Positions 4,437-64,000 of a DNA stretch of 64,000 bases are shown in pieces (position 1 is the stretch's first letter; the number at the start of each line of letters is the position of its first letter). This DNA is from Candidatus Omnitrophota bacterium (GTDB lineage: Bacteria; Omnitrophota; Gorgyraeia; 2-01-FULL-45-10): contig JAPLME010000012.1 of NCBI GenBank assembly GCA_026387175.1, forward strand, positions 5,849 to 69,848, read 5' to 3'. Below the pieces are notes generated by a model that was not told where the DNA came from, searched no databases, and saw nothing but the letters and a program-made list of their open reading frames with translations. The position numbers and the translations under genes are program-made.

Positions 4437-4648
4437 TGAGTTTGCTTTTACAGAATTTTGTGATATACTTTAATCGAACAAAAGAATCCCTGCGATCGGA
4501 CGCGATTTCGATCGAATAATCTTGAACCTTTAGCATTAAATAAGGGAGCCTAACTAAGTGTACGCCTCGGCGTATGCGCGAGGGCACCCACCTGTTATAA
4601 ACAGGATCAAGATAATTCATATCTCAACGCCGATTGCGGGGATTTTTA

Positions 4649-18280: not shown

Positions 18281-18286
18281 TTTAGC

Positions 18287-18547
18287 TTACCTTACTGGAT
18301 CGTAGCCGCCTTGTGAAAATGGATGACAGCGCAGTATCCTTTTTAATCCCTTAAATGATCCGGAGAATATTCCGTATTTTTCGATCGCTTCTATAGTATA
18401 TTCTGAGCAGGATGGGTAGAACCTGCAACATTGTATGTTCATGGGCGACAAATACTTACGATAAAACTTCAAAATAGAAATTGCGCCGATTTTTAAATAT
18501 CTCATAGCAGAATCCCGGCTTCTTTCGCCAATGCTAAAAAAACACAA
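18287..18547 (-). CDS. yidD: Membrane protein insertion efficiency factor YidD
   Basis: [10 protein letters not shown]...HPGGYDP-like motif ([14 protein letters not shown]...[12 protein letters not shown]). Confidence 0.8.
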
Positions 18548-18861
18548 CCGATCTCCTTACGCAAAAACTTCTTTTCGGGGCCCTTCCTTACGATCACTAC
18601 CATATCAAAGGCCGGTTTGAAGATCGGTTTATTTTTTCTATAAACTTCGCGGAAAGACCTGCGGATGCGATTGCGAATGCAGGCTCGCCTTACATTCGCG
18701 GAACTTATCGAAAAACCCATACGGTTGTAGGCTAAGCCGTTGGGCATTATCGACAGAATGAAACCGTTTTTTCTGAAAGACCTGCCTTTTTTATATACCG
18801 CCCTGAACTCCCTCGACTTTAAAATATGCTCTTTTTTCCTGAAAGTCTCGTCGGAGATCAT
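18502..18861 (-). CDS. rnpA: Ribonuclease P protein component
   Basis: Basic protein with the RNR motif region ([11 protein letters not shown]). Confidence 0.8.
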
Positions 18862-18995
18862 ACGGTAAGCTTATGGCGGCCTTTTCTCCTTCGTCTCTTT
18901 AATACTTCCCTGCCCCAGCGGTCCTTCATTCTTTTTCTAAATCCGTGTTTTTTCTTTCTCTTGATATTGGATTTGGGCTTTAGGCCATATTTCAT
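18858..18995 (-). CDS. rpmH: 50S ribosomal protein L34 (not in the ORF track because it is under 60 aa)
   Basis: Manual minus-strand translation: [45 protein letters not shown]. The stop TGA overlaps the rnpA ATG. Confidence 0.8.
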   Translation of the reverse strand: MKYGLKPKSNIKRKKKHGFRKRMKDRWGREVLKRRRRKGRHKLTV

Positions 18996-19153
18996 TTTAC
19001 GTTCCTCTCTTTCGCTGTTTTGATGTTGTTAGATTATATCATAAAGGCCCGCCCAGTCAATCATTTAATTTCACTTTATCAATTTTCCTTGCAATGCGGG
19101 CCATACTTTTATATAATAGCGCATGCTGTGCCGTATTAACGGTTAAAAACCAT

Positions 19154-19216
19154 TGTGCACAACATGTGCATAACTTGTTATTTTGTGTGGGACTGGCTTA
19201 ATATTATTGTGGATAA
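19154..19216. promoter_or_regulatory. Replication origin region: DnaA-box cluster upstream of dnaA
   Basis: Perfect TGTGGATAA at 19208-19216, plus variants TGTGCATAA (19165-19173) and TGTGCACAA (19154-19162), with AT-rich tracts at 19060-19120. Classic rpmH/dnaA divergent arrangement. Confidence 0.6.
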
Positions 19217-19234
19217 CTGCAGATTGGCGGACAA

Positions 19235-20608
19235 ATGAGCGATTCCGGCAGCGTCTGGACAAAAGCACTGGATATTATCAGAAAAGAGCTCGATAATGAG
19301 CAGACGTTCAATATCTGGTTCAGCCCTATCAAGTGTTCCTCGTGTACGTCGGAGAAAATGATCCTGGAGGTGCCAAACAAGTTTTTCCAGGACTGGTTAT
19401 TGAACAGATATATGGATGTCCTGAATTCCGGCGCCAGGAAAGCCTGCGGCGCGGAAATCAAGATAGAATTTATCTTCGGTGCCGACGAGTCGGCCAACAC
19501 GGAAATCGAGGCGGCAAAGAAAGAGGAGACGAAAAAAGAAGTTAAAGGTTTTTGGCCGTTTTCGAAACACGCTCCGGACCACGCCAGAGAACTGGGGCTC
19601 GACCCCAAGTATACATTCGATAGTTTTGTTATCGGGTCTTCCAACCGCTTTGCCCATGCCGCGGCCATGGCGGTCTCCGATTCTCCGGCGAAAGCCTATA
19701 ATCCTCTCTTTATATACGGCGGCACAGGGCTGGGTAAGACGCATCTTATGCACGCCATAGGGGATCGTGTTCTCGCGAAGAGCCCAAAGACAAAAGTCCT
19801 GTACATTTCGAGCGAGGACTTCACCAACCAGATGATAAGCGCCATCCAAAACCGATCGATGATCAAGTTCAGGGAGAAGTACCGCAGCGTCGATATCCTT
19901 CTGATAGACGATGTGCATTTCATCGCCGGCAAAGATTCCACGCAGGAAGAGTTCTTCCATACTTTTAACACTTTATACGACGCGCACAAACAGATCGTCG
20001 TGACGAGCGACCGCCCCCCGAAGGAGATAAACAAGCTGGAGGAACGGCTCGTATCCAGGTTTTTGTACGGACTCGTGACGGATGTCCAGCCGCCTGATTT
20101 TGAGACGAGGATAGCTATATTAAAGAGGAAGTCCGAAATAGCGGCATTGACTCTGCCTGAAGATGTTTTTTATTTTCTTGCGGAAAAGGTTAAGACCAAT
20201 ATCAGGGAGCTGGAGGGCGCGCTTATACGTGTGGTCGCATATTCGAAGCTTATAGGAAAAGAGGTCTCCGTCGACCTCGCTAAGGAAGTGTTGAAGGACA
20301 TGATCATAGAGGGTGAGAAGAAGATCACCATAGACCTTATACAAAAGAAGGTGAGCGAGTATTTCGATATAAAACTTTCCGATATGAGAGCGAAGAAGCG
20401 CTCGAAGGCAATAGCATACCCGCGTCAGGTGGCGATGTATCTCGCCAGGCAGCTCACTGATTATTCACTTCCGGAGATAGGAGACCAGTTTGGGGGGCGC
20501 GACCATACTACGGTAATACACGCCTGCACTAAAGTGGAAGGTGATTTAAAGAGTAAAGACGGTTTTAAGGTTTTGTTGGGGCGATTAATAGAAAGTATTA
20601 AAGGATAA
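19235..20608 (+). CDS. dnaA: Chromosomal replication initiator protein DnaA
   Basis: AAA+ Walker A GGTGLGKTHL; domain IV DNA-binding region VAMYLARQLT. Confidence 0.95.
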   Translation: MSDSGSVWTKALDIIRKELDNEQTFNIWFSPIKCSSCTSEKMILEVPNKFFQDWLLNRYMDVLNSGARKACGAEIKIEFIFGADESANTEIEAAKKEETKKEVKGFWPFSKHAPDHARELGLDPKYTFDSFVIGSSNRFAHAAAMAVSDSPAKAYNPLFIYGGTGLGKTHLMHAIGDRVLAKSPKTKVLYISSEDFTNQMISAIQNRSMIKFREKYRSVDILLIDDVHFIAGKDSTQEEFFHTFNTLYDAHKQIVVTSDRPPKEINKLEERLVSRFLYGLVTDVQPPDFETRIAILKRKSEIAALTLPEDVFYFLAEKVKTNIRELEGALIRVVAYSKLIGKEVSVDLAKEVLKDMIIEGEKKITIDLIQKKVSEYFDIKLSDMRAKKRSKAIAYPRQVAMYLARQLTDYSLPEIGDQFGGRDHTTVIHACTKVEGDLKSKDGFKVLLGRLIESIKG

Positions 20609-20629
20609 GCCTGGGTATCCTGTTTGGCG

Positions 20630-20717
20630 TGTTGATAAGTTTTTTGGTTTTGGGTAGCGGTGGGTTTTTATAATATATTGCGGTGTAGATAGTTAACACG
20701 TTATACACTTATCCACA
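20630..20717. promoter_or_regulatory. DnaA-box cluster and AT-rich tract between dnaA and dnaN
   Basis: Perfect TTATCCACA at 20709-20717, adjacent TTATACACT (20701-20709) and TGTTGATAA (20630-20638), followed by an AT-rich stretch at 20731-20763. Confidence 0.55.
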
Positions 20718-21835
20718 GGTATTACTACGGCTATTGCTATTTTTTAATTTAGTATAATAATCGAAGGGAGTAGAGGGAATGAAATTTACCGCGCCTAAGG
20801 ATGTGCTGTTAAAAGGTATACAGAGCGTGCAGACGGTGATAGATTCGAAAGCGGTACAGCCGATACTGTCACATATACTGATAAAAGCCGCAACAGACAA
20901 CTTAATATTAACAGCAACGGATTTCAATGTGGGGATAATAACCACGATCCCCGTAAAACCATCGATAATCGGGGCGATAACGGTGCCGGCGAAAAAATTT
21001 TCGGAGATAATTAAGGAGCTGCCGGACGGCGAGGCTATTTCGATATCGGTAAAGAAGAATAATATCATCAACATAGAGTGTGGCAATAGCAACTTCAAAA
21101 TAATGGGGCTGTCGGAAGAGGAATTTTCCAAGCCGCCCGAATTCAAAGACAAAAATTATGTAACATTAAAACAATCCAGGTTAAAGATGATGCTCCGCAG
21201 GACAGGTTTTGCGACGGGCCACGACGAGATAAGGCACGTGTTGAACGGGATATTGTTTGTGTTGAAACCCTCAGGTTTAAGGCTCGTGGCGACCGACGGA
21301 AGATGCCTTGCCATGACGGAAGAAAAGATGCAGCTTCCGAAAACGCTCGAGGGGAAATTTATATTACCGTCGAAAGCTGTAGCTGAGCTCGACAGGATCC
21401 TGGCCGACGACGGAGAGGTGAGGATGTCGGTGGCGGAGAAGCAGGTGATGTTCGATACCGGGGTGACGAAGCTGGTCTCCAGGCTCATCGAGGGCGACTT
21501 TCCTAACTATGAACGCGTGATCCCTGAAGAGACGAAAGAAAAGATAACCGTCTCCAGGCAGGCTCTTCTGGCGGCCATAAAACGCGTCGCGCTCTTCACA
21601 AGCCCCGACTCGATGTTCGTCAGGGTGGATGCGGCCAAGGACAAGATGGTTTTATCGAAGAGTGACCCTCATACGGGAGAAGCTCGCGTAGAGTTAACGG
21701 CGCAGTATAAAGGAAAAGAGCTGTCGATCGGGTTCAACCCCGATTATCTTATAAGCTTATTGAAGAATGTGGACCAGGAGACGATAGCCCTGGAGCTCGT
21801 CGACGCAGAGAAGCCGGGCGTTGTGAGGATCGCGG

Positions 21836-24669
<2,834 letters not shown>

Positions 24670-24749
24670 TTAATTTATAGCTATTACAAGGCCGATATCA
24701 GGGATATCGGCACTTAGCATACAAGAAGGCTTAATAAACTAGGAGTGAT

Positions 24750-27347
24750 ATGTACGCGCTTAATGAAAAAGTAACGCCCAGATGTATAGAAGAGGAGATG
24801 AAGGATTCGTATATAAATTACGCGATGAGCGTAATAGTCGGCAGGGCCCTGCCCGATATACGCGACGGGTTGAAACCCGTGCACAGGAGAGTGCTTTACG
24901 CTATGAGAGAGTTGGGGCTCGAACACAACAAGCCGCACAAGAAGAGCGCCAGGATCGTCGGAGAGGTGCTCGGTAAATATCATCCGCACGGAGACGCCTC
25001 CATCTACGATACACTTGTCCGCATGGCGCAGAGTTTCAGCCTGCGTTACCCGCTTGTCGACGGCCAGGGAAATTTTGGATCTATCGACGGAGATTCCGCG
25101 GCGGCGATGAGGTACACTGAGGCCAGGCTCGAACATATCACGGACTGGATGCTTCTCGACATCGACAAAAACACGGTCGATTTCGCGCCAAACTTCGACG
25201 GGTCTCTGGAGGAGCCGACCGTGCTGCCGTCATGCCTGCCCAACCTCCTGGTAAACGGCTCGAGCGGTATCGCCGTCGGAATGGCGACGAATATCCCCCC
25301 GCATAATTTAAAAGAAGTGGCGGATGCCATAATACATATAATAGAGAACCCCGCATGCGAACCCAAGGAACTATTGAAGAAGATAAAGGGACCCGACTTT
25401 CCGACGGGCGGGATAATAAAAGGATACGAGGGTATAAGGAACGCTTACCTGACGGGCCGCGGGCTCTTAAGGATACACGCGAAGGCCTTTATAGAGGAGA
25501 TGAAGAGCGGGAAAGAGGCCATTATTATTAAAGAGATCCCGTACATGGTCAACAAATCAAACCTCATCGAATCGATCGCCGATCTCGTCCAGGAGAAAAA
25601 GATAGACGGTATCACGGACCTGAGAGACGAATCCGATAAAGACGGAATGCGTATCGTTATAGAGCTGAGGCGCGGGGCTATCGCGCGGGTGGTATTGAAC
25701 CTGCTCTACAAGCATACCCAGATGCAGCAGACATTCGGCGTCATTATGCTGGCTCTCGTCGACGGGCGTCCCAAGGTCCTGAACCTGAAAGACATGCTCG
25801 TCGAATTCATAAAGCACAGGAAAGATATCATTGTGAGGAGGACGCGGTTCGATCTTGAGAAAGCGCAGGACCGGGCGCATATCCTGGAAGGCTTGAAAAT
25901 TGCGCTCAAGAACCTCGATAAGATAATAAAGCTTATAAGGGAATCTAAAGATCCCCAGGTCGCGAAAGCCGCCCTTATCGAAAAGTTTGATCTTTCGGAC
26001 AAGCAGGCGCAGGCGATCCTGGAGATGCAACTGCAGCGTCTCACAAATCTGGAGCGCGAAAAGATCGACAAAGAGTATCTCGAGCTTATAAAGAAGATAG
26101 AGTATTATAAGTCGATACTCGACAGCGAGAAACTGGTATTGCAGATCATCAAAGACGAAACTAAGGAGCTTGCGGAGAAATTCGGCGACGAGAGAAGGAC
26201 TGAAATCGCTCCGGAGGCGGAGGAGCTCGAGATAGAGGATCTGATAACAGAAGAAGACGTTGTTATCACGATGAGCCACGGCGGCTACATTAAGAGGCTT
26301 CCGATCTCCAGCTATCGCAAGCAGCACCGCGGCGGCAGGGGCGTGGCCGGGGCCGATATAAAAGAAGAGGATTTTATAGAGCACTTATTCGTGGCCTCGA
26401 CCCATGACTCGCTGCTCTTCTTTACCGATAAGGGTGTGGTGCACTGGCTTAAAGTTCATGAGATACCCGAAGCGGGGCGCAGCTCTAAAGGTAAAGCGAT
26501 CATAAATCTTCTGGCAATCGGCCCCGGCGAGAAGATAAGCGCCTTTGTGCCCGTGAGAGAATACAAGGATGGGCACTTTCTCGTTATGGCGACAAAGACC
26601 GGTTCGATAAAGAAAACGGATCTTCAGGCCTATTCGAACCCACGCAAGGGGGGCATCATAGGTATGGGGTTGGAAAAAGGGGATGAGCTCATCGGCGTCA
26701 AAATGACCAACGGCTCCAATGAGATACTGCTCGCCACTCGCGAAGGCAAAGCCATACGCTTCAAGGAAGAGCAGGTGCGCGATATGGGCCGCTCCGCGAA
26801 AGGCGTGCGCGGAATAAGGCTGGGCAAGAAAGACGCCGTTATAGCCATGGAGATAGTGGACCCCGACCAGACGATCCTTACCGTCACGGGCCTGGGATTT
26901 GGGAAGAGGACCTTATTCAAGGAATACAGGTTGCAAACCCGAGGCGGGAAAGGTATTATAAATATTAAAGTTACGGGTAGGAATGGCGAGGCCGTGGGCT
27001 TAAGGACCGTTTCGGATAAAGACGAGCTTATGCTCGTCACCGAAAAGGGAATGGTGGTCCGCTGCCCGGTGAAAGACGTTCGTACCACAGGCCGTTCCAC
27101 TCAAGGGGTCAGGCTGATGAAGCTTGACGCTCATGACGTGGTGGCGTCGATGGCTAAGATAGTGCCTGAAGAGGAAACGGAGAAAGTGGTAGAGGCCATT
27201 CCTGCCGCTATTCCTCAAGATAGCGTAAAAGCGCCTGAGCCGCAAAAAGCCGAAGTGAAAGAAACGAAAAAAGAGCCTGTCAAGGAAGCGGCTCCGGGAA
27301 AGAAGCCCGCGGCAAAGCCAAAGGCTAAAAAAATCAAAAGAAAATAA
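24750..27347 (+). CDS. gyrA: DNA gyrase subunit A
   Basis: Active-site region [11 protein letters not shown], GyrA box, beta-pinwheel C-terminal domain, and a Lys/Pro-rich C-terminal tail. Confidence 0.95.
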
Positions 27348-27431: not shown

Positions 27432-27442
27432 TTCTACACGAT

Positions 27443-27532
27443 GGGGCCATCCCAAAAAGGGACACCCTGCAATCTCAACCCCCGCCCCTTTAAGTTTATT
27501 TATTACAGGGTGTCCCTTTTTGGGATGGCCCC
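27443..27532. repeat. GGGGCCATCC-family palindromic repeat: perfect 27-bp inverted repeat with a ~36-nt loop
   Basis: Left arm ggggccatcccaaaaagggacaccctg; right arm cagggtgtccctttttgggatggcccc. The same terminal motif recurs at 45016, 45575 and 48724. Confidence 0.7.
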
Positions 27533-27544
27533 CGTGGAGCCAGG

Positions 27545-32288: not shown

Positions 32289-32315
32289 AGAGTCCGGTTC
32301 AGATCAAAACCTTTT

Positions 32316-32350
32316 AAAGATCGGTCCTTGAGAGGCCGGAAAAGGAGAAG
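32316..32350 (+). promoter_or_regulatory. PyrR-binding RNA element (pyr leader attenuator)
   Basis: GGUCCUUGAGAGGCCGGAAAAGGAG resembles the conserved PyrR binding loop (UCCAGAGAGGCU...AAGG). Lies in the 5' leader of pyrR, followed by a weak hairpin plus U-tract. Confidence 0.5.
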
Positions 32351-32418
32351 AATAAGATGAGACTGCCCATTTATCTGTTTAAGGTAAGTGGGATTTTTTA
32401 TGCCCGGGGAAGGGAGAT

Positions 32419-32967
32419 ATGGCTGTGAAAGAGAAATCCAAAGTAATGGATAAAGAGGCGATCGATAAAGCGCTCGAGCGCATAGCCCACGAAATCATCG
32501 AGCATTTCGAGGATCTGGACGATATAGCGGTGATAGGAATAAAAAACCGCGGAGCACACCTGGCCCAGCGCCTTGCATTAAAAATAGGGCGTATCACAAA
32601 GAAGAACCCGCCCGTCGGAGCGCTCGATATAACTCTTTACAGGGACGACCTTACGCAGGTAGCGGAACAGCCGGTTGTCCATGCCACGGAAATAGATTTT
32701 ACCATAGAGGGCAGGAATATAGTCCTGGTCGACGACGTTCTCTTCACCGGCCGTACGATAAGGTGCGCCCTTGACGCTCTGATAGATTTCGGCCGCCCGG
32801 GCTGTATACAGCTCGCCGTGCTCGTAGATAGGGGGCATAGGGAGCTTCCGATAAAAGCCGATTATGTAGGCAAGAATGTGCCGACATCCGCCGATGAGCT
32901 TGTCGAGGTAAGGCTTGCGGAGACAGACGGCAAAGATGAGGTTGTGCTTTGTCAGAAGACGTCCTAA
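32419..32967 (+). CDS. pyrR: Bifunctional pyr operon regulator / uracil phosphoribosyltransferase PyrR
   Basis: PRT motif VLVDDVLFTGRTIRCALDAL. Confidence 0.9.
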   Translation: MAVKEKSKVMDKEAIDKALERIAHEIIEHFEDLDDIAVIGIKNRGAHLAQRLALKIGRITKKNPPVGALDITLYRDDLTQVAEQPVVHATEIDFTIEGRNIVLVDDVLFTGRTIRCALDALIDFGRPGCIQLAVLVDRGHRELPIKADYVGKNVPTSADELVEVRLAETDGKDEVVLCQKTS

Positions 32968-38312: not shown

Positions 38313-38350
38313 TAATAAGTCAATCTACCTCTGTGTTTTAAGGTTTAGCG

Positions 38351-38473
38351 TAGGGACTTGAAGCTTGCGAGCGCCGACGAATAGGAGGAAAAGGTCTCCG
38401 ACCGGCAGCGAGCAAGCTGGCTACGCAGGTGAGCTCTGCGAACCGAAGTAGCCGAGTCCTGTCTTGCCCACCA
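38351..38473 (+). repeat. tRNA-linked conserved ~100-nt element, copy 1; ends in a direct repeat of the tRNA-Val(TAC) 3' end
   Basis: Core GAAGCTTGCGAGCGCCGACGAATAGGAGGAAAAG...CAGCGAGCAAGCTGGCTACGCAGGTGAGCTCTGCGAACCGAAGTAGCCGA, then GAGTCCTGTCTTGCCCACCA. The final 21 nt are identical to tRNA positions 38292-38312. The left end GGGACTTGAA is near-inverse of the T-arm TTCGAGTCC. Confidence 0.6.
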
Positions 38474-38486
38474 TCCTTCATCTATT

Positions 38487-38729
38487 ATGAGCAACTGGAC
38501 CCTATATATACTCAAATGTTCCGACGGATCTCTGTATACCGGGATAACGACGGATCTCGGGAAGCGCTTTAAATGCCACAATGAAGGCAAGGCCTCGAAG
38601 TATACGAGATCCAGGCTTCCCGTGAAACTGGCATATAAAAGATCTCTGAAGGATGAATCTTCCGCAAGAAAAGAAGAGGCCCGAATTAAGGGCCTCTCCA
38701 GAAAAGCAAAACTCGATATTATATCTTAG
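38487..38729 (+). CDS. GIY-YIG nuclease superfamily small protein (YhbQ/UPF0213-like)
   Basis: WTLYILKCSDGSLYTGITTDLGKRFKCHNEG...KYTRSRLPVKLAY. Confidence 0.7.
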   Translation: MSNWTLYILKCSDGSLYTGITTDLGKRFKCHNEGKASKYTRSRLPVKLAYKRSLKDESSARKEEARIKGLSRKAKLDIIS

Positions 38730-41616: not shown

Positions 41617-41623
41617 CTTTAGG

Positions 41624-41659
41624 AAATGCCTTACAAAATAACTGTAGGGCATTTTTATT
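41624..41659 (+). terminator. Rho-independent terminator-like hairpin after tRNA-Asp
   Basis: aaatgcc-(17 nt)-ggcattt followed by TTTATT. Confidence 0.4.
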
Positions 41660-41660
41660 G

Positions 41661-41788
41661 GTGGCGGGGATATAGGGGGTCGAAGCTCGCGAGCGCCGAC
41701 GAATAGGAGGAAAAGCGCTATGCGCGACAGCGAGCGAGCTGGCTACGCAGGCGAGCTCTGCGAGCCGAAGTAGCCGACCCCCGTCGTC
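41661..41788 (+). repeat. tRNA-linked conserved ~100-nt element, copy 2; bracketed by an inverted and a direct copy of the tRNA-Asp 3' end
   Basis: Left: TGGCGGGGAtataGGGGGTCGAA (reverse complement of TTCGACCCCCGTCGTCCCCGCCA with a 4-nt change). Core nearly identical to copy 1. Right: CGACCCCCGTCGTC (41775-41788). Confidence 0.6.
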
Positions 41789-41942
41789 AAATCCTCTTGA
41801 CTAATCCTAATTCCAAGAGTAGCATATTCTTTAACTGGTTATTAGGCAGTTACTTAAGGAGCCGAAGCGACGTTCGACTCCCCTCGTCCCCGCTGGAGTT
41901 TGACATATGTGCAGAACCCATAATTAGATATCCGAGTTTCTC

Positions 41943-42049: not shown

Positions 42050-42670
42050 ATGAAAACAAGAGATTGGTTAGAAAAAAATAAAATCTTTTTTGAAACCGTT
42101 GCTGCCATAGCCCTCTCGCTCATGGCTTTGTTAGTTTCCTGCACGCAATCCGAAATAGCCAGAAATCAATTAGTCCTTTCTGGAAATCCTATAATTTTAA
42201 TCGAGCCTTCAGACACTGTGAAAGGATCCATCGGTGAATTCAAAATATCCGTTAAAAATATCAGTATGGCAGAACTATACGATATTCGTATTTATGAGGA
42301 TTACTTTGTCACTATGGCACAAGAAAATGGTTCAATTAACTTAGTAAGTGTAGGGGCGTTTATAACTAAACCAAATTTGGTTATCCCACAATTAAAACCG
42401 AATAATAGGGAAGATATTACGATTAATTGTAAATTAATAATTAAAAATATGAAGGAGCTTTACCGCGAACACAAAGGGGTAGAAATGCGAATTGCCCGGA
42501 TAAGAATTAAATATTGCAGAAAACTAGATGGGAAAGAATTTATGCAAACCAAAGCATATATTATTGCGGGACAGGGTGATTTTCTTATTGATTACGATGA
42601 GCGTGGCATAAGAACTCCTATGACTCCCAGTTTTGAGGATATCAAAAATATACTCGGGGCTGAAAATTAG
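42050..42670 (+). CDS. Hypothetical protein: N-terminal single TM anchor plus a ~170-aa soluble domain (AT-rich island gene 1)
   Basis: 206-aa ORF with TM segment IFFETVAAIALSLMALLVS; no recognisable catalytic motif; AT-rich codon usage unlike the flanking core genes. Confidence 0.5.
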   Translation: MKTRDWLEKNKIFFETVAAIALSLMALLVSCTQSEIARNQLVLSGNPIILIEPSDTVKGSIGEFKISVKNISMAELYDIRIYEDYFVTMAQENGSINLVSVGAFITKPNLVIPQLKPNNREDITINCKLIIKNMKELYREHKGVEMRIARIRIKYCRKLDGKEFMQTKAYIIAGQGDFLIDYDERGIRTPMTPSFEDIKNILGAEN

Positions 42671-42748: not shown

Positions 42749-43843
42749 ATGGCAAAGCTCAATGAGGATATAGAGCAATTAAAGGAAGACCTCGAAGCAG
42801 TTACTGCCGTGGATGATGAAACTTCAAACGAAAATGTTCCCATAAAATATGCAATTAGTTCTTATGGGGCAGATTATCCAGTTGATGGATTGGTTAAAAG
42901 ATTGCAGGCCAAAGATGTTATAATTCCCGAATTTCAAAGAGAATATGTATGGACACTTAGACAAGCATCTAGGTTTATAGAATCCCTTCTTTTGGGTCTT
43001 CCCGTTCCCGGCGTTTTTCTTTCAAAAGAACAAGAAACGGGCAAACTCTTAGTCATCGATGGTCAGCAGAGATTAAAAACATTGCAGTTCTTTTTTGAAG
43101 GCGTTTTTCGTGGAAAAGAATTTCGACTTACTGAAGTACAAGATGAATACAAAGGACGATTGTATAAAGAACTCGAAGACATAGATAAGCGACAATTACA
43201 AAACTCTGTTATTCATGCCACGGTATTAAAACAAGACACCCCAAAGGATGACCAGAGCAGTGTATATCACGTTTTCGAACGATTAAATACGGGCGGGTCT
43301 ATTCTTTACCCACAGGAAATAAGAGCTTGTATATATCATGGGCCCTTTAACAACGTTTTATCCGAAATCAATAACAATACGCACTGGCGAAACATTTTTG
43401 GAAAGATAAATAAACGACTAAAAGACGAAGAATTGCTATTGAGATTCTTCGCTTTATATTATGACAAGGCTACGTATACAACGCCTTTCAAATCTTTTCT
43501 TAACACTTTTATGGAAAGTAACAGAAAAATGGAAAGGTATTCTAAGGCTAATCTTGAAAAACTATTTTCTCCGGCAATGGAAGTGGTATATAAATGTATT
43601 GGCGAGAAAGCATTTAGATTAGATAAAGCTATTAATGCCGCTGTTTTTGAATCAGTAATGGTTGGTCTAGCGACTAGACTAGAGAAAGGAGCTATTAATA
43701 ACGCAACGCAAGTTAAATCAGAATACGAAAAATTAATAAAAATTCCAGATTATTTGGCAGCATGCAAAACAGGAACTTCTGATAAGGGAAAAGTCGAAAA
43801 AAGGCTATCTTTAGCCATTGACGCGTTTAGTCGGATTTCATAA
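42749..43843 (+). CDS. DUF262 (ParB-like / GmrSD N-terminal domain) protein, stand-alone
   Basis: IPEFQREYVWT...RFIESLLLGLPVPGVFL...LLVIDGQQRLKTL and FERLNTGG match DUF262 signature motifs. Good RBS AGGAGG 4 nt upstream. Confidence 0.8.
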   Translation: MAKLNEDIEQLKEDLEAVTAVDDETSNENVPIKYAISSYGADYPVDGLVKRLQAKDVIIPEFQREYVWTLRQASRFIESLLLGLPVPGVFLSKEQETGKLLVIDGQQRLKTLQFFFEGVFRGKEFRLTEVQDEYKGRLYKELEDIDKRQLQNSVIHATVLKQDTPKDDQSSVYHVFERLNTGGSILYPQEIRACIYHGPFNNVLSEINNNTHWRNIFGKINKRLKDEELLLRFFALYYDKATYTTPFKSFLNTFMESNRKMERYSKANLEKLFSPAMEVVYKCIGEKAFRLDKAINAAVFESVMVGLATRLEKGAINNATQVKSEYEKLIKIPDYLAACKTGTSDKGKVEKRLSLAIDAFSRIS

Positions 43844-44301
43844 TGCTTAGTCATGTTACTTCGGAAATAGACAAGATAGACGCTCTTTTTAAGTTTGAAA
43901 ACGACATCATTAATGATGAAGTAAGAGCTTATTGGGCCGAATATCTTTGTGTGCGAGTTGCTGGATTAATAGAGGCCGTTCTAAGAATAATACTATTTTA
44001 TTATGCTAAGAATAAATCGCATGAGAACGTTGCGCGTTACGTATCCAAGAAGGTAGAGGGTGTTACAAATCTTAATTCAGAGAAAATTGAAAACTTGTTA
44101 GGAGATTTTAGCGAGGTTTGGCAAGAGCGCTACGTTCAAAATATTACGGATTCTCAAAAAGCAGCAATCGGCAATATTTACATAAATAGAAATAGAGTTG
44201 GTCACGGACGCAATTCCGAATTATCTTATTATAGAGTAAAAGAATATTATAAGGAAATAAAAGGTGCGTTATTAGCTATTTTGAAAATCGTTGAAGCATA
44301 A
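43843..44301 (+). CDS. HEPN-domain protein (Rx4H motif, RiboL-PSP/Swt1-like flavour)
   Basis: 152-aa all-helical ORF with NRNRVGHG (R-x4-H) near the C-terminal third. The start ATG overlaps the DUF262 stop by 1 nt (ATAATG). Confidence 0.55.
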   Translation: MLSHVTSEIDKIDALFKFENDIINDEVRAYWAEYLCVRVAGLIEAVLRIILFYYAKNKSHENVARYVSKKVEGVTNLNSEKIENLLGDFSEVWQERYVQNITDSQKAAIGNIYINRNRVGHGRNSELSYYRVKEYYKEIKGALLAILKIVEA

Positions 44302-44320: not shown

Positions 44321-44400
44321 AAAATAGGAAAATAGGGGGGGCCGGTCCAGAAAGTACCACTCTATAAGCTAATGGGCTGGCACCAAAAGAGCCGTCCCCG
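44321..44400. repeat. Divergent copy of the GGGGCCATCC-family repeat with an aaaataggaaaatagggg leader
   Basis: aaaataggaaaataggggggGCCGGTCCAGAAAG...GGGCTGGCACCAAAAG. The 18-mer leader recurs at 45488-45505. Confidence 0.4.
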
Positions 44401-44467
44401 TAAATACGTATGAGATCCGATCCTCATAATATTTTTTACAAGTATCAGATTTTCAAGGAGGTTTGTT

Positions 44468-45013
44468 ATGTCGCTTTTAGGAGAAGAGTTAGTAGAAGAA
44501 TGGTTAAATAGAAAAGGCTATTTCACAATCCGCGGTGCAAAAATCGGAAACGGAGAAATAGACTTGCTTGCTGTTAAATATACAAGCAAAGGAATTGACT
44601 GTTGGCATTATGAGGTTCAGGCCTCCCTTCGACCAGTAAGTTATATTTGTTCAGCGCCTCAAGAGCTTCGTAAATTAGGTAAGTCCGCTCACAATGCTAA
44701 GAAACGTCCTATGTCTGAAATCGAGACTGCGGCGAAAGAATGGATTTATAAAAAGTATTTAGATCCAAAGAAAGAAAATATTAGAAGGAGTCTTTGGCCA
44801 ATGAAATGGAGCTTTGGTCTTATTGTGGGGAATGTTAAACACTCAGAAGAATTGGAAATTATTGCTAAAAATAATATCACCATTGTTCGAATTGCGGATA
44901 TTATTAAAAACCTTTCGCCAAAATCTCAAACTAATAGCAAGGATTTTAGAGTTGGAGCAGCAAGTGGTGCTGATTTAATTGATTTGGTTTTTGCTCACTC
45001 CCAACTTGCATAA
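44468..45013 (+). CDS. Hypothetical protein with possible PD-(D/E)xK nuclease-like N-terminal motif
   Basis: EELVEEWLNRKGYFTIRGAKIGNGEIDLLAVKY...WHYEVQAS resembles an E...D...E-x-K/Q restriction-endonuclease-fold core. Weak; strong RBS AAGGAGG. Confidence 0.4.
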   Translation: MSLLGEELVEEWLNRKGYFTIRGAKIGNGEIDLLAVKYTSKGIDCWHYEVQASLRPVSYICSAPQELRKLGKSAHNAKKRPMSEIETAAKEWIYKKYLDPKKENIRRSLWPMKWSFGLIVGNVKHSEELEIIAKNNITIVRIADIIKNLSPKSQTNSKDFRVGAASGADLIDLVFAHSQLA

Positions 45014-45015
45014 GC

Positions 45016-45088
45016 GGGGCCATCCCACAAAGTGCCACCCTGCATGACAAGAGAAGATCCTAGGCTGTCCCCAAAACAGGATGGCACC
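45016..45088. repeat. GGGGCCATCC-family palindromic repeat (MITE/REP-like), copy B
   Basis: ggggccatcccacaaagtgccaccctgcatgacaagagaagatcctaggctgtccccaaaacaggatggcacc. Terminal 10-nt arms are inverted complements. Confidence 0.6.
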
Positions 45089-45115
45089 AAATATTCTTAG
45101 TGAAGGAGAAATGAG

Positions 45116-45469
45116 ATGTTTGAACATAAGCATGAAAAAATAGCGTCGGTTTCAGTCTTCATAAAAAGGCTGGTCGGGTATATCGCAGCCGCTATTCTAT
45201 TGATTTTACTCTCCTTATTTGTTGGAATCGCCGGATATCATTGGCTAGCCGGCTTTAGCTGGATCGATTCGCTCTTAAACGCATCTATGATCTTAGGCGG
45301 TATGGGGCCGGTGAACTTGCTGACCAATCTCGGCGCAAAAGTCTTTGCGTCCCTGTACGCGCTTTTTAGCGGACTTGTATTCATTGCGGTAATGGGAATA
45401 GTTTTCTCTCCGATCATACATAGAATGCTTCATACATTTCATATCGACGACAAAGATTTACATAAATGA
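45116..45469 (+). CDS. Small hypothetical membrane protein (3 predicted TM helices) flanked by repeat copies
   Basis: 117-aa ORF with hydrophobic segments YIAAAILLILLSLFVGIAGY, MILGGMGPVNLL, LYALFSGLVFIAVMGIVF; RBS GGAG. Confidence 0.45.
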   Translation: MFEHKHEKIASVSVFIKRLVGYIAAAILLILLSLFVGIAGYHWLAGFSWIDSLLNASMILGGMGPVNLLTNLGAKVFASLYALFSGLVFIAVMGIVFSPIIHRMLHTFHIDDKDLHK

Positions 45470-45487
45470 TAACCTTGAGATTCGGTC

Positions 45488-45648
45488 AAAATAGGAAAAT
45501 AGGGGACAGCGCCCTATTTCCGAAAGTAATGAGGCCATCTCATAAGGGGACACCCTGCATAATAAGCAAGAACCGGGGCCATCCCACAAAGGGACGCCCT
45601 GCATGATAAGAGAAGCTTCTAGGCTGTCCCCAAATAGGATGGCCCCAA
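45488..45648. repeat. GGGGCCATCC-family repeat, copy C (leader 18-mer, a partial unit and a full unit in tandem)
   Basis: aaaataggaaaataggggacagcgccctattt... gaggccatctcataaggggacaccctgcat... ggggccatcccacaaagggacgccctgcatgataagagaagcttctaggctgtccccaaataggatggcccc (full unit 45575-45646). Confidence 0.6.
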
Positions 45649-45685
45649 AACACCAGAATACAAATCATATGAAAGAAGTGGCGCA

Positions 45686-48706: not shown

Positions 48707-48723
48707 ACTCGATACGAATAACC

Positions 48724-48760
48724 GGGGCCATCCCACAAAGGGACACCCTGCATGACTAGA
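48724..48760. repeat. GGGGCCATCC-family repeat, copy D (left half only)
   Basis: ggggccatcccacaaagggacaccctgcatgactaga immediately after the autotransporter stop. Confidence 0.5.
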
Positions 48761-48828: not shown

Positions 48829-49920
48829 TTGGCGGCGTTTGTGAAGGTGTTTCTAATGCGTAAATCGGCCATAGCGTTAATATTTTTCTTTATATTATCA
48901 ATTTCTTCTACCATGGTGTGGGCCGAAGAGAAATCAACAGATATGCAGAAGACAACCTGGGGAGATATTTTTGCAGATGTTATTGGTCATTACCCTTTAG
49001 CGGACAGCTTGACCACTGATAATACTATCAAGCAGAAAAATAAGTTAAACACACCAAAAAATTGGGAATTCGGCATAGAAGCAAAGCGTTATATCGCCAG
49101 TAATACCTCGTATGAATTTGGTGATCCGGGCGGGGCCTTTACAAAACCTCTCAGCCGGCTGGAATTTCCGATAAATACGTGGTGGTTAAATTTTGATCTT
49201 CGTCGGACCTGCCCGCGATGGTCGGTTGGGGCAAAGGCGGGTTTTAGCATGAACCGCAATTCAAACGGTTGGATGGAAGATTCGGACTGGGCTACATCCG
49301 GCAGCGATAATATTTTAACCAATTATTCAAGAAGCTATTGTGATATAAGAAAAGCTTTCCTCTTTCGCGGAGATGTAGATGTTAATATCTCGGATTGGCT
49401 GAGGCTGCCTTCATCATTAGAGATACGACCGTTATTCGCATTCCAATTTCAACGATTCAATCCCGTAGCGCATAACGGCGTGCAGTGGAATTATGATGAT
49501 GGAAGCGCGATGTCCCTTGATGGTAACGCTATAAGCTTCAGACAGGACTGGTATACATATATGATCGGGATGAGAGGGGCATACAGTTTAGACCTGAATA
49601 AGCATATAGCGATTAAATTGAAGACAGAGGCCGACTGGGGACCAGCCCTCGGCCATAATGAAGACCATCACATACTGCGCGGGGATAGGTGGACATACGA
49701 AAACACATCAGGCAATGCCCTTTACTTTTTAGCCGGAGTTGATATGACCATTTCAAAAACTATAACGATAGGCGCCGGCATAGATTATCTGTGGATACAA
49801 ACTTTCGGAACCCATCGATGGCGGGATCCTTCTCTTCCTGTCGATCAATCGTGGTCTGACGGCGTCAAGGCCTGGTCTGATCAATTGGGCTTAACAATGC
49901 ATGCATCTTACGCATTTTAG
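48829..49920 (+). CDS. Outer-membrane beta-barrel protein (paralog 1 of a tandem pair)
   Basis: Signal peptide, alternating amphipathic strands, C-terminal ...HASYAF. The true start is probably the downstream Met (MRKS..., ~48856). Confidence 0.55.
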   Translation: MAAFVKVFLMRKSAIALIFFFILSISSTMVWAEEKSTDMQKTTWGDIFADVIGHYPLADSLTTDNTIKQKNKLNTPKNWEFGIEAKRYIASNTSYEFGDPGGAFTKPLSRLEFPINTWWLNFDLRRTCPRWSVGAKAGFSMNRNSNGWMEDSDWATSGSDNILTNYSRSYCDIRKAFLFRGDVDVNISDWLRLPSSLEIRPLFAFQFQRFNPVAHNGVQWNYDDGSAMSLDGNAISFRQDWYTYMIGMRGAYSLDLNKHIAIKLKTEADWGPALGHNEDHHILRGDRWTYENTSGNALYFLAGVDMTISKTITIGAGIDYLWIQTFGTHRWRDPSLPVDQSWSDGVKAWSDQLGLTMHASYAF

Positions 49921-50046
49921 TAAATCTAATGAAAATTTCTGGGCCGATTCTCGCCGTAATCCCAGATCCGTCCCAAAATACCCATAAGGATGATTTGCCA
50001 AAACCCTACCCTTAGAGTATACTTTTACAAAAAGAAAGGATGGGAT

Positions 50047-51150
50047 ATGAATAGATCTATTGTTTTGTTTTTAGCATTAATCCTTATGTTATCTGTTTCA
50101 CCAACAATGTCATGGGCCGGTGAAAAAACATCAGATATAAAAATGACAACATGGCAGGATATCTTTTCAGATGTAGCCGGACATTACCCGCTAAACATTG
50201 GCCAGGCTAATACCTATGCGGAACAGAAAGGTAAATTGAATCAGCCGAAGAATTGGGCATTCGATCTCGGCGTTCAGTATTTCCTTATGAGCCATACTTC
50301 ATATCAATTCGCTAATTCAGGCGCGGTTTTTCAAAATCCACTTAGTAAACTGCAGTTTCCTTTAAATACATGGTGGCTGGAAACTGAACTGCGCCGCACT
50401 TGTCCGAGGTGGTCGGCCGGGATCCGCGCAGGCTTAAGCGTCGCCAAGAATGTAGACGGGCGGTTCAAGGATTCGGACTGGCTGAACCCGGGAAACACCA
50501 GCATGTTAACAACATATTCAGAGAGCGCAATGCGGTCGGAAAACAGTTACCTCTTTCGCGCAGACGCCGATGTGAATATCTCGGACTGGTTGGGGCTTCC
50601 GCCGTCATTCGAAATACGGCCTCTCTTCGCTTTCGAGTTTCAGCGATTAAAGCTCATGGCGCACGATGGTGTGCAATGGGAAGTCGGTTCATACGATCCT
50701 GATGAAGGGAGAAGCCTTGATGGATATGCGAGCGCCCAGGCGCTCGCCGGAAATTCAATACATTTTCGACAGGACTATTATATGTATCAGATCGGGCTAA
50801 GAGGCGTGTATGATGGTTTCAAGATCGGAAAGTACATAACTATTAAAGCGCATGGCGAAGCTGACTGGGGCCCTGTCGTAGGATACAACGAAGATAATCA
50901 CCTCCTGCGTGATCTCTTCGGTTATATTAGGTCATCCGGTAATTCTTTATACTTTTCAACCGGCCTGGACATGGTCTTTGCGAAAACCATTACAGCCGGT
51001 ATTTCAATGGATTACCTGTGTATAAGAACTACCGGCATGCTGCACGATCGAGATCTGGCGCATGGCGGCGTGGAGGCGTGGAATGATGAAAGTGTCAAAG
51101 TCTGGTCCGATCAGACGAGCTTAATAGCGCATGTGTCTTATGCATTTTAG
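50047..51150 (+). CDS. Outer-membrane beta-barrel protein (paralog 2)
   Basis: Start chosen at MNRSIVLFLALILMLSVSPTMSWA (the listed ORF starts at 49990). Co-linear similarity with 48829..49920 (TTWxDIFxDVxGHYPL, LxFPxNTWWL, RRTCPRWS, NISDWL, RPLFAFxFQR); ends HVSYAF. Confidence 0.55.
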   Translation: MNRSIVLFLALILMLSVSPTMSWAGEKTSDIKMTTWQDIFSDVAGHYPLNIGQANTYAEQKGKLNQPKNWAFDLGVQYFLMSHTSYQFANSGAVFQNPLSKLQFPLNTWWLETELRRTCPRWSAGIRAGLSVAKNVDGRFKDSDWLNPGNTSMLTTYSESAMRSENSYLFRADADVNISDWLGLPPSFEIRPLFAFEFQRLKLMAHDGVQWEVGSYDPDEGRSLDGYASAQALAGNSIHFRQDYYMYQIGLRGVYDGFKIGKYITIKAHGEADWGPVVGYNEDNHLLRDLFGYIRSSGNSLYFSTGLDMVFAKTITAGISMDYLCIRTTGMLHDRDLAHGGVEAWNDESVKVWSDQTSLIAHVSYAF

Positions 51151-56402: not shown

Positions 56403-56771
56403 ATGAGCTTAAAGAGGGAGAGTGATCGCATGAAGAAGGTAATGGCTGTGGTCCTCGCTATTTTATTGATGCTGGCGGATATTCAAATAGCCATTGCATT
56501 CATGCCCAATCCAGAAGCGCTCAAGGACAGCAAGCCGGAGGCGCTATCTATAGTGGACCAATTATACTTGAGGTACGACACGATCGATCTAAATAGCCTT
56601 ACCAAAATAAAGATTTTAGTCAATAGGCTTACCAATAGAGTCGAGTATGTATTCAATAACGGCTATAAGCGTTATATTAGGCCTAAATTTGTTATGCCCG
56701 ATGCCCAAGCCTTATACGATAAGACGTGCGCGGGGAAAATAGGGAACGATCCAGAAAGTGACACCCCATAG
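56403..56771 (+). CDS. Small hypothetical secreted protein
   Basis: ORF with the internal Met MKKVMAVVLAILLMLADIQIA (~56433) as the likely start; no motifs. Confidence 0.3.
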   Translation: MSLKRESDRMKKVMAVVLAILLMLADIQIAIAFMPNPEALKDSKPEALSIVDQLYLRYDTIDLNSLTKIKILVNRLTNRVEYVFNNGYKRYIRPKFVMPDAQALYDKTCAGKIGNDPESDTP

Positions 56772-56852
56772 AGGAAAACAGGGATACCCTATTTGTATTT
56801 TGAGACTTTGTAATGTACACTATCCTTAATATCGAATGAAAAAGGAGCATTT

Positions 56853-63453: not shown

Positions 63454-64000
63454 ATGGCGAAGTTCATGAAAATATCGGCAGTGATATGTTTGGTCATGTT
63501 GTCAGTGTATGGCGTCTCTTACGCCCAGGACGATGATCAGGGTGGCCAGGGAGATGCCGGAGGAAGCGTATCCGATGAAAGCAGCGCGGCAGATGTACCG
63601 GACGCAGGAAATGTGCAGACAGAAGTTAGTGATACTGGAGATACAGGAAATACACAGACAGAGGTCAGCGATACCGGAGATACAGGAAATACACAGGTAG
63701 AAGTTAGTGATACCGGAGATACGGGAAATACGCAAGTAGAGGTTAGTGATACGGGGAATACAGAGGATGTACAAGCAATAGAGAATGATGCGGTCCCCGC
63801 ACCGGATGAAGCGCGCGGAGTAATAGGAACTAGCGAGAGCTATGAAGAATATCAGAGCGACACGAATCCGAGTGAAGGCGTAATAAGCACCAGCACCACT
63901 TATCCGGTCCGCAAAAACGCGAGAGTGGTAAGGCCGGCCGTTGTAGGTGTACCCGTAGCAACCGGAGCGAGGGCTATTGTAAGAGGCTCTTTCGCCGGCC
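63454..64000 (+). CDS. Secreted acidic protein with tandem 13-aa repeats (3' end truncated at the window edge)
   Basis: RBS GAGGAGG; signal peptide MAKFMKISAVICLVMLSVYGVSYA; repeats EVSDTGDTGNTQT x4. Confidence 0.5.
   Translation, partial: MAKFMKISAVICLVMLSVYGVSYAQDDDQGGQGDAGGSVSDESSAADVPDAGNVQTEVSDTGDTGNTQTEVSDTGDTGNTQVEVSDTGDTGNTQVEVSDTGNTEDVQAIENDAVPAPDEARGVIGTSESYEEYQSDTNPSEGVISTSTTYPVRKNARVVRPAVVGVPVATGARAIVRGSFAG
63622..63775 (+). repeat. 39-bp tandem repeat (~4 units) within the terminal CDS
   Basis: gaagttagtgatactggagatacaggaaatacacagaca and three near-identical units. Confidence 0.7.

Follow-up and report, generated by a model that had tools for sequence, protein, structure and literature searches.

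Palindromic repeats at gene 3' ends in a Candidatus Omnitrophota genome are very probably REP sequences tied to RAYT-type tyrosine transposases

A 64,000-nucleotide stretch of Candidatus Omnitrophota DNA (contig JAPLME010000012.1; hereafter the window) carries, in a run of co-directional genes, a set of short palindromes resembling repetitive extragenic palindromic (REP) sequences, which are the subject of this analysis. The basic unit, GGGGCCATCCCAnAAAGGGACACCCTGCA of about 29 nt together with its variants, was found as 11 monomers at six sites between 27.4 and 56.8 kb, arranged as singles and as inverted doublets of two related families, F1 and F2. The copies were located with a covariance model built from 30 aligned monomers of the window and of related loci and run over the whole window with filters off. 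All 11 monomers were recovered at E ≤0.0033 (range 3.5e-10 to 3.3e-3), including the diverged right arms at 45617-45649 and 45058-45091, which were detected though left out of the model, and no convincing match was observed at 1-27 kb of the window. By position, and with REPIN denoting two inverted REP monomers around a short spacer, the copies are:

27440 to 27535: F1 REPIN-like doublet; monomers 27440-27472 (+ strand) and 27503-27535 (- strand) with a 28-nt spacer; 45.9 and 45.5 bits, E about 4e-10.
44321 to 44405: F2 doublet; leader AAAATAGGAAAATAGG followed by monomers 44335-44367 (+ strand) and 44370-44402 (- strand); 34.2 and 27.1 bits.
45013 to 45091: F1 heterodimer; A monomer 45013-45045 (+ strand), 41.8 bits, and diverged B monomer 45058-45091 (- strand), 20.3 bits, E=0.003.
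45488 to 45520, + strand: truncated F2 monomer, GGGGACAGCGCCC..., headed by the 18-mer leader in its second copy; a marginal match, 13.2 bits, E=0.28.
45528 to 45560, + strand: degenerate single F1 monomer of the A type; 86% identity to the 29-mer, 38.7 bits, E=3e-8.
45572 to 45649: F1 heterodimer; A monomer 45572-45604 (+ strand) and B monomer 45617-45649 (- strand); 39.6 and 34.7 bits.
48721 to 48753, + strand: single F1 A monomer, the best match to the consensus with 0 mismatches; 44.4 bits.
56729 to 56797: degenerate F2 unit; leader AAAATAGGG followed by monomer 56739-56771 (+ strand) and a decayed partner arm; 32.5 bits, E=1.6e-6.

Several independent counts show that these monomers are a non-random family, confined within the window to 27.4-56.8 kb. 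The 29-mer GGGGCCATCCCACAAAGGGACACCCTGCA occurs five times at ≤3 mismatches, compared with none expected from 100 shuffles, and the 18-mer AAAATAGGAAAATAGGGG has exactly two occurrences (44321 and 45488), where 0.08 would be expected. A repeat finder assigned the copies at 45012, 45527, 45571 and 48720 to a single family and separately reported the near-perfect inverted repeat 27443-27473 / 27502-27532. The repeats are base-for-base identical in independent Logan assemblies of several sequencing runs (L005-L015) and are therefore not an assembly artefact. A search against Rfam at E up to 1 over 27-57 kb returned nothing for the repeats.

Intergenic DNA holds ten of the 11 monomers, each of them 2-19 nt past a stop codon or a tRNA. 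The doublet at 27440 sits 11 nt past tRNA-Glu and 12 nt ahead of an amidohydrolase gene; the F2 doublet at 44321 lies between a HEPN gene and a gene for a 181-aa protein, 2 nt past whose stop codon the heterodimer at 45013 begins; the heterodimer at 45572 separates a 117-aa membrane gene from an autotransporter gene; and the single monomer at 48721, which has kept part of the doublet spacer and lacks a B arm, follows the autotransporter stop codon by 17 nt. As an initial annotation of this DNA had observed, the repeats thus bracket the membrane gene, a PD-(D/E)xK-like gene (the 181-aa gene) and the autotransporter gene. Its statement that every copy is intergenic and downstream of a gene applies to those ten monomers, whereas the F2 copy at 56739-56771 covers the last 33 nt of a hypothetical 122-aa ORF, so that not every copy is strictly intergenic. 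Nine of the monomers fall at 44.3-48.8 kb, within and just past a low-GC stretch (36-41% GC, 42-46 kb) that follows tRNA-Asp, and all six asymmetric sites point in one direction relative to both transcription and replication. The window also contains the chromosomal origin region (16703-27347), in which yidC, yidD and rnpA on the minus strand are followed by dnaA (19235-20608), dnaN, dciA (21836-22192), gyrB and gyrA, and the GC skew changes sign at about 19-20 kb. The right replichore, whose lagging-strand template is the + strand, holds all repeat copies.

The dimensions given in the initial annotation proved accurate, and all of its coordinates hold. It had described GC-rich palindromic units of ~72 nt with 10-nt terminal inverted repeats, and the doublets measure 73 nt with one mismatch in the terminal repeat (45016-45088) and 72 nt with a perfect one (45575-45646); the two are 89% identical over 64 nt, spacer included. 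The unit at 27443-27532 has 31-nt arms that are 97% complementary, 27 nt of them perfectly, around its 28-nt spacer, in agreement with the perfect 27-bp arms described beside tRNA-Glu. What had been called a partial unit (45529-45570) is a genuine monomer, accompanied by a spacer related to that of the doublets, and the half-unit at 48724 is the consensus-like single copy listed above. Two descriptions needed revision. The supposed divergent copy at 44321-44400 is real, yet it is an inverted doublet of the second family, F2, and not a variant of F1. Likewise the 18-mer does occur twice, yet it is the 5' part of F2 rather than a separate leader, and its second occurrence heads a truncated F2 unit (body 45499-45519, with a small hairpin formed by AAATAGGG and CCCTATTT) and is no part of the F1 partial unit beside it. 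The same AAATAGGG / CCCTATTT pair closes the unit at about 56729-56797.

In the 30-monomer alignment the two families can be aligned position by position, F1 as GGGGCCATCC(C/T)nnAAAGGGACACCCTG and F2 as (AAAATAGG)AAAATAGGGGACGGTCCAnAAAGT(G/A)CCACCCCAT. Each monomer is an imperfect palindrome of about 26-29 nt, for which the 30 sequences suggest a hairpin of 4 bp, a 3x2 internal loop, 4 bp and a 5-nt loop. Pairing is retained in 90.4% of cells, against ≤73.8% once the partners are slid, and two pairs differ between F1 and F2 by compensatory changes; because the structure was derived from those same sequences, this conservation supports the hairpin modestly. Heterodimers are formed at 45016 and 45575, where each ~72-nt F1 unit combines a consensus A arm with a B arm that reads GGGGCCATCCTATTTGGGGACAGCCTAG on the opposite strand and is similar to the 3'-type repeat that accompanies the F2 transposase genes described below. 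The same A/B pairing, with shorter spacers, was observed in two other organisms (L016, L018), and in these heterodimers the A-rich loops of both arms lie on one strand.

The identity of the repeats became apparent from related loci. A scan of GTDB representative genomes with a degenerate 25-mer gave one true match, in an Omnitrophota metagenome-assembled genome (MAG; locus L001), where the repeat stands shortly ahead of a truncated ORF whose end reads ...QYIERNPLRAGMV...; three other matches (L002-L004), which fell inside genes of unrelated phyla and were about as many as chance would produce, were not retained. Four contigs emerged from a metagenome scan, and on one of them (L019) two inverted copies enclose a 194-aa ORF. 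Its product, P0001, has 1062 relatives at E ≤1e-10, all named ones coming from Omnitrophota, and contigs were retrieved for six of these relatives. Scans of viral contigs for F1 and F2 gave no matches. Altogether F1 or F2 flank, in inverted orientation, a gene for an HUH/Tyr transposase at nine loci from Omnitrophota MAGs and metagenomes (L001, L019, two genes in L020, L021, L022, L023, L026 and L029), which favours the REP-like or miniature-element option among those first proposed for the repeats. The arrangement is regular: the 5' repeat lies on the gene strand 90-115 nt ahead of the ATG at all nine loci, and the inverted 3' repeat lies -6 to +2 nt from the stop codon at all eight complete ones.

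The proteins encoded between the repeats belong to the REP-associated tyrosine transposases (RAYTs). P0001 matches Pfam Y1_Tnp (PF01797, E=1.7e-15) and the NCBIfam model NF047646, REP_Tyr_transpos "REP-associated tyrosine transposase", at 82.1 bits (cut-off 80). NF047646 was the best match for all eight proteins tested, two of which passed the cut-off (P0001, and P0004 at 85.0 bits), with the remaining RAYT-like proteins just under it at 69.7-76.8 bits; the NCBIfam IS200 model gave at most 27.6 bits against a cut-off of 55. Since the RAYT model matches best and the IS200 model scores far lower, we regard this clade as a divergent RAYT lineage rather than typical IS200. The HUH motif PNH(T/A/I/F)H(I/L/M)LL (PNHxHxLL) is present in all seven full-length proteins, and the tyrosine motif GRYIERNPLRAG is invariant across them. 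Both align with the matching segments of E. coli TnpAREP, GRYIERNPLRAG with the segment holding the catalytic tyrosine, and TnpAREP (4ER8) was the sole match of a RAYT protein in the PDB (phmmer E=0.0018). The Omnitrophota protein, of about 194 aa, has a C-terminal extension of roughly 50 aa. Three of the RAYT proteins (P0004, P0013 and P0014) come from other samples and were used for architecture, not as members of this genome.

Each RAYT lineage has its own matching repeat. In L020 two paralogous RAYT genes 2 kb apart are flanked one by F1 and the other by F2; in L029 the gene is F2-flanked, its upstream repeat AAAATAGGAAAATAGGGGACGGTCCATAAAGTGCCACCCCAT starting with the 18-mer seen in the window and GGGGACGGTCCTTTTGGTGCCACCCC following the gene on the opposite strand; and L026 carries a third repeat variant, GGTGCCATCCCAGAAGGTGCCACCC. 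The window doublets have the architecture of such a unit without its gene, with a short spacer between a 5'-type and a 3'-type REP, as judged from the sequences. In the F2 doublet at 44335-44402 a 5'-type monomer is joined to a 3'-type monomer, as around the F2-type RAYT genes, and in the F1 doublet at 27443 one arm still has the flank AATCTCAA, which in RAYT loci overlaps the RAYT stop codon.

Locus L001 (MAG JBAZUO010000002, 3860-4141) presents a partly emptied unit. There the RAYT gene between two REPs is internally deleted, with its first five codons fused to the C-terminal ~81 residues and the HUH motif lost, and this deletion is a natural intermediate between a REPtron, a RAYT gene flanked by REPs, and a gene-less doublet.

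The leader of ~100 nt that separates the RAYT start from the 5' REP (...TATTTTAAAATAATTTGCAACAATTTAGCCTCTTTnAGCGTCTTTATATA...AAAGGAGGCnTTTTTATG) is strikingly conserved although the RAYT genes themselves are just 56-87% identical. In this leader the segment GCCTCTTT is nearly complementary to the Shine-Dalgarno sequence AAGGAGGC, and it may form a translational control hairpin for the transposase. It was observed at:

L019, 1109-1206 (- strand): conserved leader ahead of the RAYT gene.
L020, 3898-4012 and 6433-6524: the same leader ahead of the two RAYT genes.
L023, 4452-4547: the same leader.
L026, 9886-10000: the same leader.
L029, 9896-10000: the same leader.
L001, 3805-3895: the same leader.

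An upstream motif, AAATAGG, was considered as an IS608-like target site. It stands ahead of all F2 5' repeats, all 5' repeats of the L026 type and the 5' repeat of L001, and it was not adopted because most F1 copies lack it, being preceded by ...AAT or other sequences.

Whether a cognate transposase is encoded in the genome of the window, which the initial annotation had proposed to check for an IS200/IS605-type TnpA, could be answered in the affirmative with good probability: the enzyme is a Y1 HUH RAYT, and one of its loci, L023, very probably belongs to the same genome. By exact look-ups the window proteins are MCX5678938.1-MCX5678943.1 (locus tag NTY76_07550) of a Candidatus Omnitrophica MAG. 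The RAYT of L023, P0002, is MCX5677835.1, about 1100 below them in the same accession series, and is 87% identical to the L019 protein. It is present, on one contig per sample, in SRR20698638, SRR20698639 and ERR15302206, runs that also hold the genes of the window. The tetranucleotide correlation between L023 (12.7 kb) and the window is 0.963, within or above the values for sub-segments of the window, compared with 0.71-0.90 for other Omnitrophota loci. The repeats flanking P0002 (GGGGCCATCCTGAAAAGGGACACCCTGTA) are two or three bases off the F1 copies of the window. The assignment rests on the shared runs, the accession series and the tetranucleotide signature. The copies known from this genome are thus the 11 monomers in the 64 kb of the window plus three full copies and partial fragments around the L023 RAYT gene; the possibility that the family might consist of the window copies alone is countered in part by this second contig attributed to the genome and by copies in other Omnitrophota.

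Taken together, we consider it very probable that the repeats are REP sequences, that the inverted doublets are units like REPINs or bacterial interspersed mosaic elements (BIMEs), and that the two families are tied to RAYTs (HUH/Y1) in Candidatus Omnitrophota. By analogy with the E. coli and Pseudomonas systems, the monomer would fold into a small hairpin in single-stranded DNA, a RAYT encoded elsewhere in the genome would bind and cut that hairpin, and the cutting would, over long times, place copied or moved monomers and doublets in intergenic DNA with no duplication of the target. Most of the window copies, which are truncated, diverged or nested, are probably old and immobile. The doublets are probably transcribed, since they lie 2-19 nt past stop codons in a co-directional run, and they may secondarily act as 3' stem-loops with an influence on mRNA stability or read-through, a role compatible with their being REPs.

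Several observations weigh against this interpretation. No RAYT gene or fragment was found in the 64-kb window, in six frames, either by regular expression or by a profile of 120 homologues (best E 0.6). That the P0002 gene of L023 resides in the same genome is likely, and is inferred rather than demonstrated; this protein reaches 74.7 bits on NF047646, under the curated cut-off of 80. For the F2 family, a search by accession series revealed no F2-type RAYT of this genome among ten candidates. The copy number is modest, with nine of the 11 monomers inside 4.5 kb, and in about 89 kb of related loci nearly all copies are those adjoining the RAYT gene. No insertion polymorphism was seen at the repeats, all Logan contigs of this strain being identical. 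Single monomers are weak DNA hairpins (-2.6 to -6.2 kcal/mol), with z below -2 in one of eight tested. Finally, the classical GTAG tag (or CGTC) is missing from the window copies, whose monomers end in ...CCCTGCA, ...CCCTGTA or ...GCCTAG, corresponding to GCAG, ACAG or CTAG on the other strand. In the sister lineages L020, L021 and L022 and in the 3' copy of L001 the end is ...CCCTAC, i.e. GTAG on the other strand. Some REP families have degenerate tags (GYAG and others; PMC3733652), and the GCAG of the window copies is compatible with GYAG.

The position of the copies at gene 3' ends also invites the reading that they evolved as cis-regulatory RNA of the host (terminators, attenuators or 3' stem-loops that stabilise mRNA) and are unrelated to any transposase. 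All sites but one have the placement just downstream of a stop codon or tRNA that such elements would show, all asymmetric units share one direction relative to transcription, two doublets fold strongly as RNA (27443: -58.1 kcal/mol, z = -8.4; 45575: -35.7 kcal/mol on the + strand, z = -4.4, and -44.2 kcal/mol on the - strand), and REPs elsewhere are reported to influence mRNA stability and termination (PMC3733652). However, on the coding strand none of the units is followed by a T-run, and a terminator scan made no + strand terminator-like call at the units, which speaks against the simple terminators that had been among the first suggestions. The 45016 doublet on the + strand folds no better than shuffled sequence (z = -0.76), the non-coding strand giving the better fold; neither a single monomer nor a truncated unit would be expected to form a stable stem; and the Rfam search reported above gave nothing. 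A purely regulatory origin would moreover leave the copies flanking RAYT genes at nine loci unexplained, and we therefore regard it as improbable.

Two further readings treat the repeats as mobile or recombining DNA of another kind, and both appear highly improbable. Were they classical miniature inverted-repeat transposable elements (MITEs), that is, deleted derivatives of DDE-type insertion sequences (ISs) moved by cut-and-paste through their 10-nt terminal inverted repeats (GGGGCCATCC...GGATGGCCCC), their size of about 72-90 nt and their terminal inverted repeats would be as in many bacterial MITEs. Yet the check for target-site duplications that had been proposed revealed none at the three F1 doublets (flanks CATAAGC / AAATATT, AAGAACC / AAAACAC and CACGAT / CGTGGAG), lone monomers exist (48721, 45528), the sole gene found between such repeats encodes a Y1 HUH and not a DDE transposase, and the scanned ORFs of the window include no transposase of any kind. 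The other reading, which takes up the recombination sites suggested at the outset, sees integron attC-like sites of site-specific recombination that built the accessory region cassette by cassette. The 181-aa nuclease-like, 117-aa membrane and autotransporter genes are indeed each bracketed by repeats in a low-GC region by tRNA-Asp, and the units, like attC sites, are imperfect palindromes at gene 3' ends. However, a Pfam scan of 44 window ORFs revealed no integrase or recombinase domain, RYYYAAC / GTTRRRY, the attC core sites, are absent from the units, one doublet lies in the core region beside gyrA and tRNA-Glu, and the nearest repeats around each bracketed gene are oriented opposite to those around a RAYT gene. 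We dropped the cassette idea because close homologues of the 181-aa gene occur on three other contigs (L032-L034) without border repeats.

Interpreted as REPs, the repeats correspond in most respects to the REP/REPIN-RAYT systems of P. fluorescens and E. coli (REP/BIME-TnpAREP). Like these they are short, imperfect extragenic palindromes occurring as singles and inverted doublets downstream of co-directional genes, they flank in inverted orientation an HUH/Tyr Y1 gene whose best family and structure matches are RAYT and TnpAREP, and each of two paralogous RAYT genes goes with a repeat family of its own (L020). In E. coli BIMEs, Y and Z monomer types alternate in doublets, and the A and B variants alternate here in the same manner. 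REPINs and RAYT groups have been described (PMC3116915 and PMC5581495, respectively), and the REPs of PMC3733652 flank RAYT genes in "REPtrons", form inverted dimers and lie downstream of unidirectional genes, each REP-RAYT pair having its own matching repeat (section "REPs and tyrosine transposases"). By contrast, the Omnitrophota repeat sequences are unrelated to those of known systems, their monomer hairpins are much weaker, the tag is GCAG, ACAG or CTAG in this genome and GTAG in sister lineages, several proteins including P0002 fall just below the NCBIfam cut-off, and the copy number in the available sequence is modest, where REPs reach tens to hundreds across a genome. The similarity to E. 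coli TnpAREP is weak at the protein level, and the ~194-aa Omnitrophota enzyme differs by its C-terminal extension.

A further parallel is provided by TIRYT genes and their "TIRtrons" (Di Nocera et al. 2013), RAYT-like genes flanked by repeats that share GGGGWSAS in the account of PMC3733652. Both systems comprise RAYT-like genes with inverted repeats at roughly constant distances, and moderately abundant repeat families present as singles, dimers and clusters; F1 (GGGGACAC) and the B arm (GGGGACAG) both fit GGGGWSAS as given there, while F2 (GGGGACGG) falls outside the motif. Omnitrophota are not named in the abstract of PMC3733652 or in its sections on GTAG families and on REPs and tyrosine transposases.

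With IS200/IS605 elements and palindrome-associated transposable elements (PATEs) the Omnitrophota units have in common the superfamily PF01797, hairpin-forming ends, the lack of target duplication and the existence of gene-less derivatives. The ends of IS200/IS605 elements are not inverted copies of each other and the elements are multi-copy, whereas the Omnitrophota gene is apparently single-copy with inverted repeats and scores far below the IS200 cut-off (≤27.6 against 55 bits). MITEs such as Correia, ERIC and RUP are similar in size, intergenic position, terminal inverted repeats and RNA foldability, and differ from the present repeats in target-site duplications, in the occurrence here of lone monomers and in the enzyme, which here is Y1 and not DDE.

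The shared direction of the sites and the A-rich loops on one strand are the sole hints at something beyond the standard REP picture. Conceivably the A/B heterodimers, which are conserved in at least three Omnitrophota organisms, are a functional unit of their own, either a REPIN needing two RAYT paralogues or a REP pair selected on one strand (as lagging-strand template or as mRNA) and possibly carrying the intervening gene, an idea to which we give little credence. If it were true, REP/RAYT would be a gene-shuffling device in a defence or accessory region.

The genes around the clustered copies include further features. A two-gene defence-like pair occupies 42749-44301 in the low-GC (36%) stretch after tRNA-Asp; its first gene gives a full-length match to PADLOC NsnA / PD-T4-2_A (E=8e-74; Pfam GmrSD_N) and is followed by the gene of the HEPN (RiboL-PSP) protein, and ahead of the pair a 206-aa ORF (42050-42670) is without match. 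The REP-bracketed 181-aa protein (44468-45013) has a weak, sub-threshold match to UPF0102 nucleases and belongs to a widespread family with more than 700 relatives. Homologues 76% identical to it stand directly after a reverse-transcriptase gene in L033 (5017-5580) and L034 (2550-3113), one of these also having a Schlafen-like helicase gene by the homologue, and the neighbours of these homologues suggest a defence context. Downstream of the autotransporter, whose passenger domain is a calcineurin-like phosphoesterase, two tandem omptin-family outer-membrane protease paralogues (48829-51150) share 75% DNA identity over 133 nt (49356-49488 / 50547-50679).

An element of ~113 nt, distinct in position from the REPs, follows tRNA-Val-TAC and again tRNA-Asp-GTC in two copies that are 85% identical:

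38313 to 38470: tRNA-linked element after tRNA-Val, core 38351-38463.
41617 to 41795: tRNA-linked element after tRNA-Asp, core 41673-41785.

Each copy has ahead of it a reverse complement of the T-arm of its own tRNA and behind it the 3' end of the same tRNA, repeated directly; the flanks therefore differ between the copies and the closing stem is still formed. RNAalifold on the two copies gave a three-stem structure of -48 kcal/mol in which 6 of 32 pairs are changed on both sides, and Rfam contained no match. A third, decayed copy of the tRNA-Asp 3' end lies at 41872-41893. This element may be either a structured RNA or a miniature integrative element targeting tRNAs, and compared with the REPs it is possibly the more unusual find. 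Directly after the tRNA-Val-linked copy, a gene on the + strand (38487-38729) encodes an 80-aa stand-alone GIY-YIG nuclease (Pfam E=1.7e-16).

Elsewhere in the window are a 6S RNA gene (4484-4646, + strand; Rfam RF00013, 57 bits, over the gathering score), a sub-threshold match to a PyrR binding site (32306-32400, + strand; 40.6 bits, E=0.019, with a gathering score of 54) a short way ahead of the ORF 32419-32967, and, at the right window edge (63605-63760), tandem 39-nt repeats in at least four copies of 79-85% identity, which probably encode a 13-residue repeat of a gene running off the window end.

REP/REPIN-RAYT is a known type of element, and no new mechanism is revealed here; its description in Omnitrophota is apparently new. 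A full-text literature search gave no publication connecting Omnitrophota with REPs, and the three texts containing both "Omnitroph" and "RAYT" have neither term in title or abstract. To our knowledge, REP/REPIN-RAYT systems have been studied almost entirely in Proteobacteria. The present data document a clear multi-family REP-RAYT system in the uncultured phylum Candidatus Omnitrophota, in which each of the paralogous RAYT genes is accompanied by matching repeats; public data contain about a thousand related RAYT proteins. For annotation, both these intergenic palindromes and the "transposase" genes of Omnitrophota MAGs can now be named, and some of the contig breaks and repeats in such assemblies are accounted for. 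The system also supplies an independent lineage for ideas on the long-term coexistence of REPINs and RAYTs.

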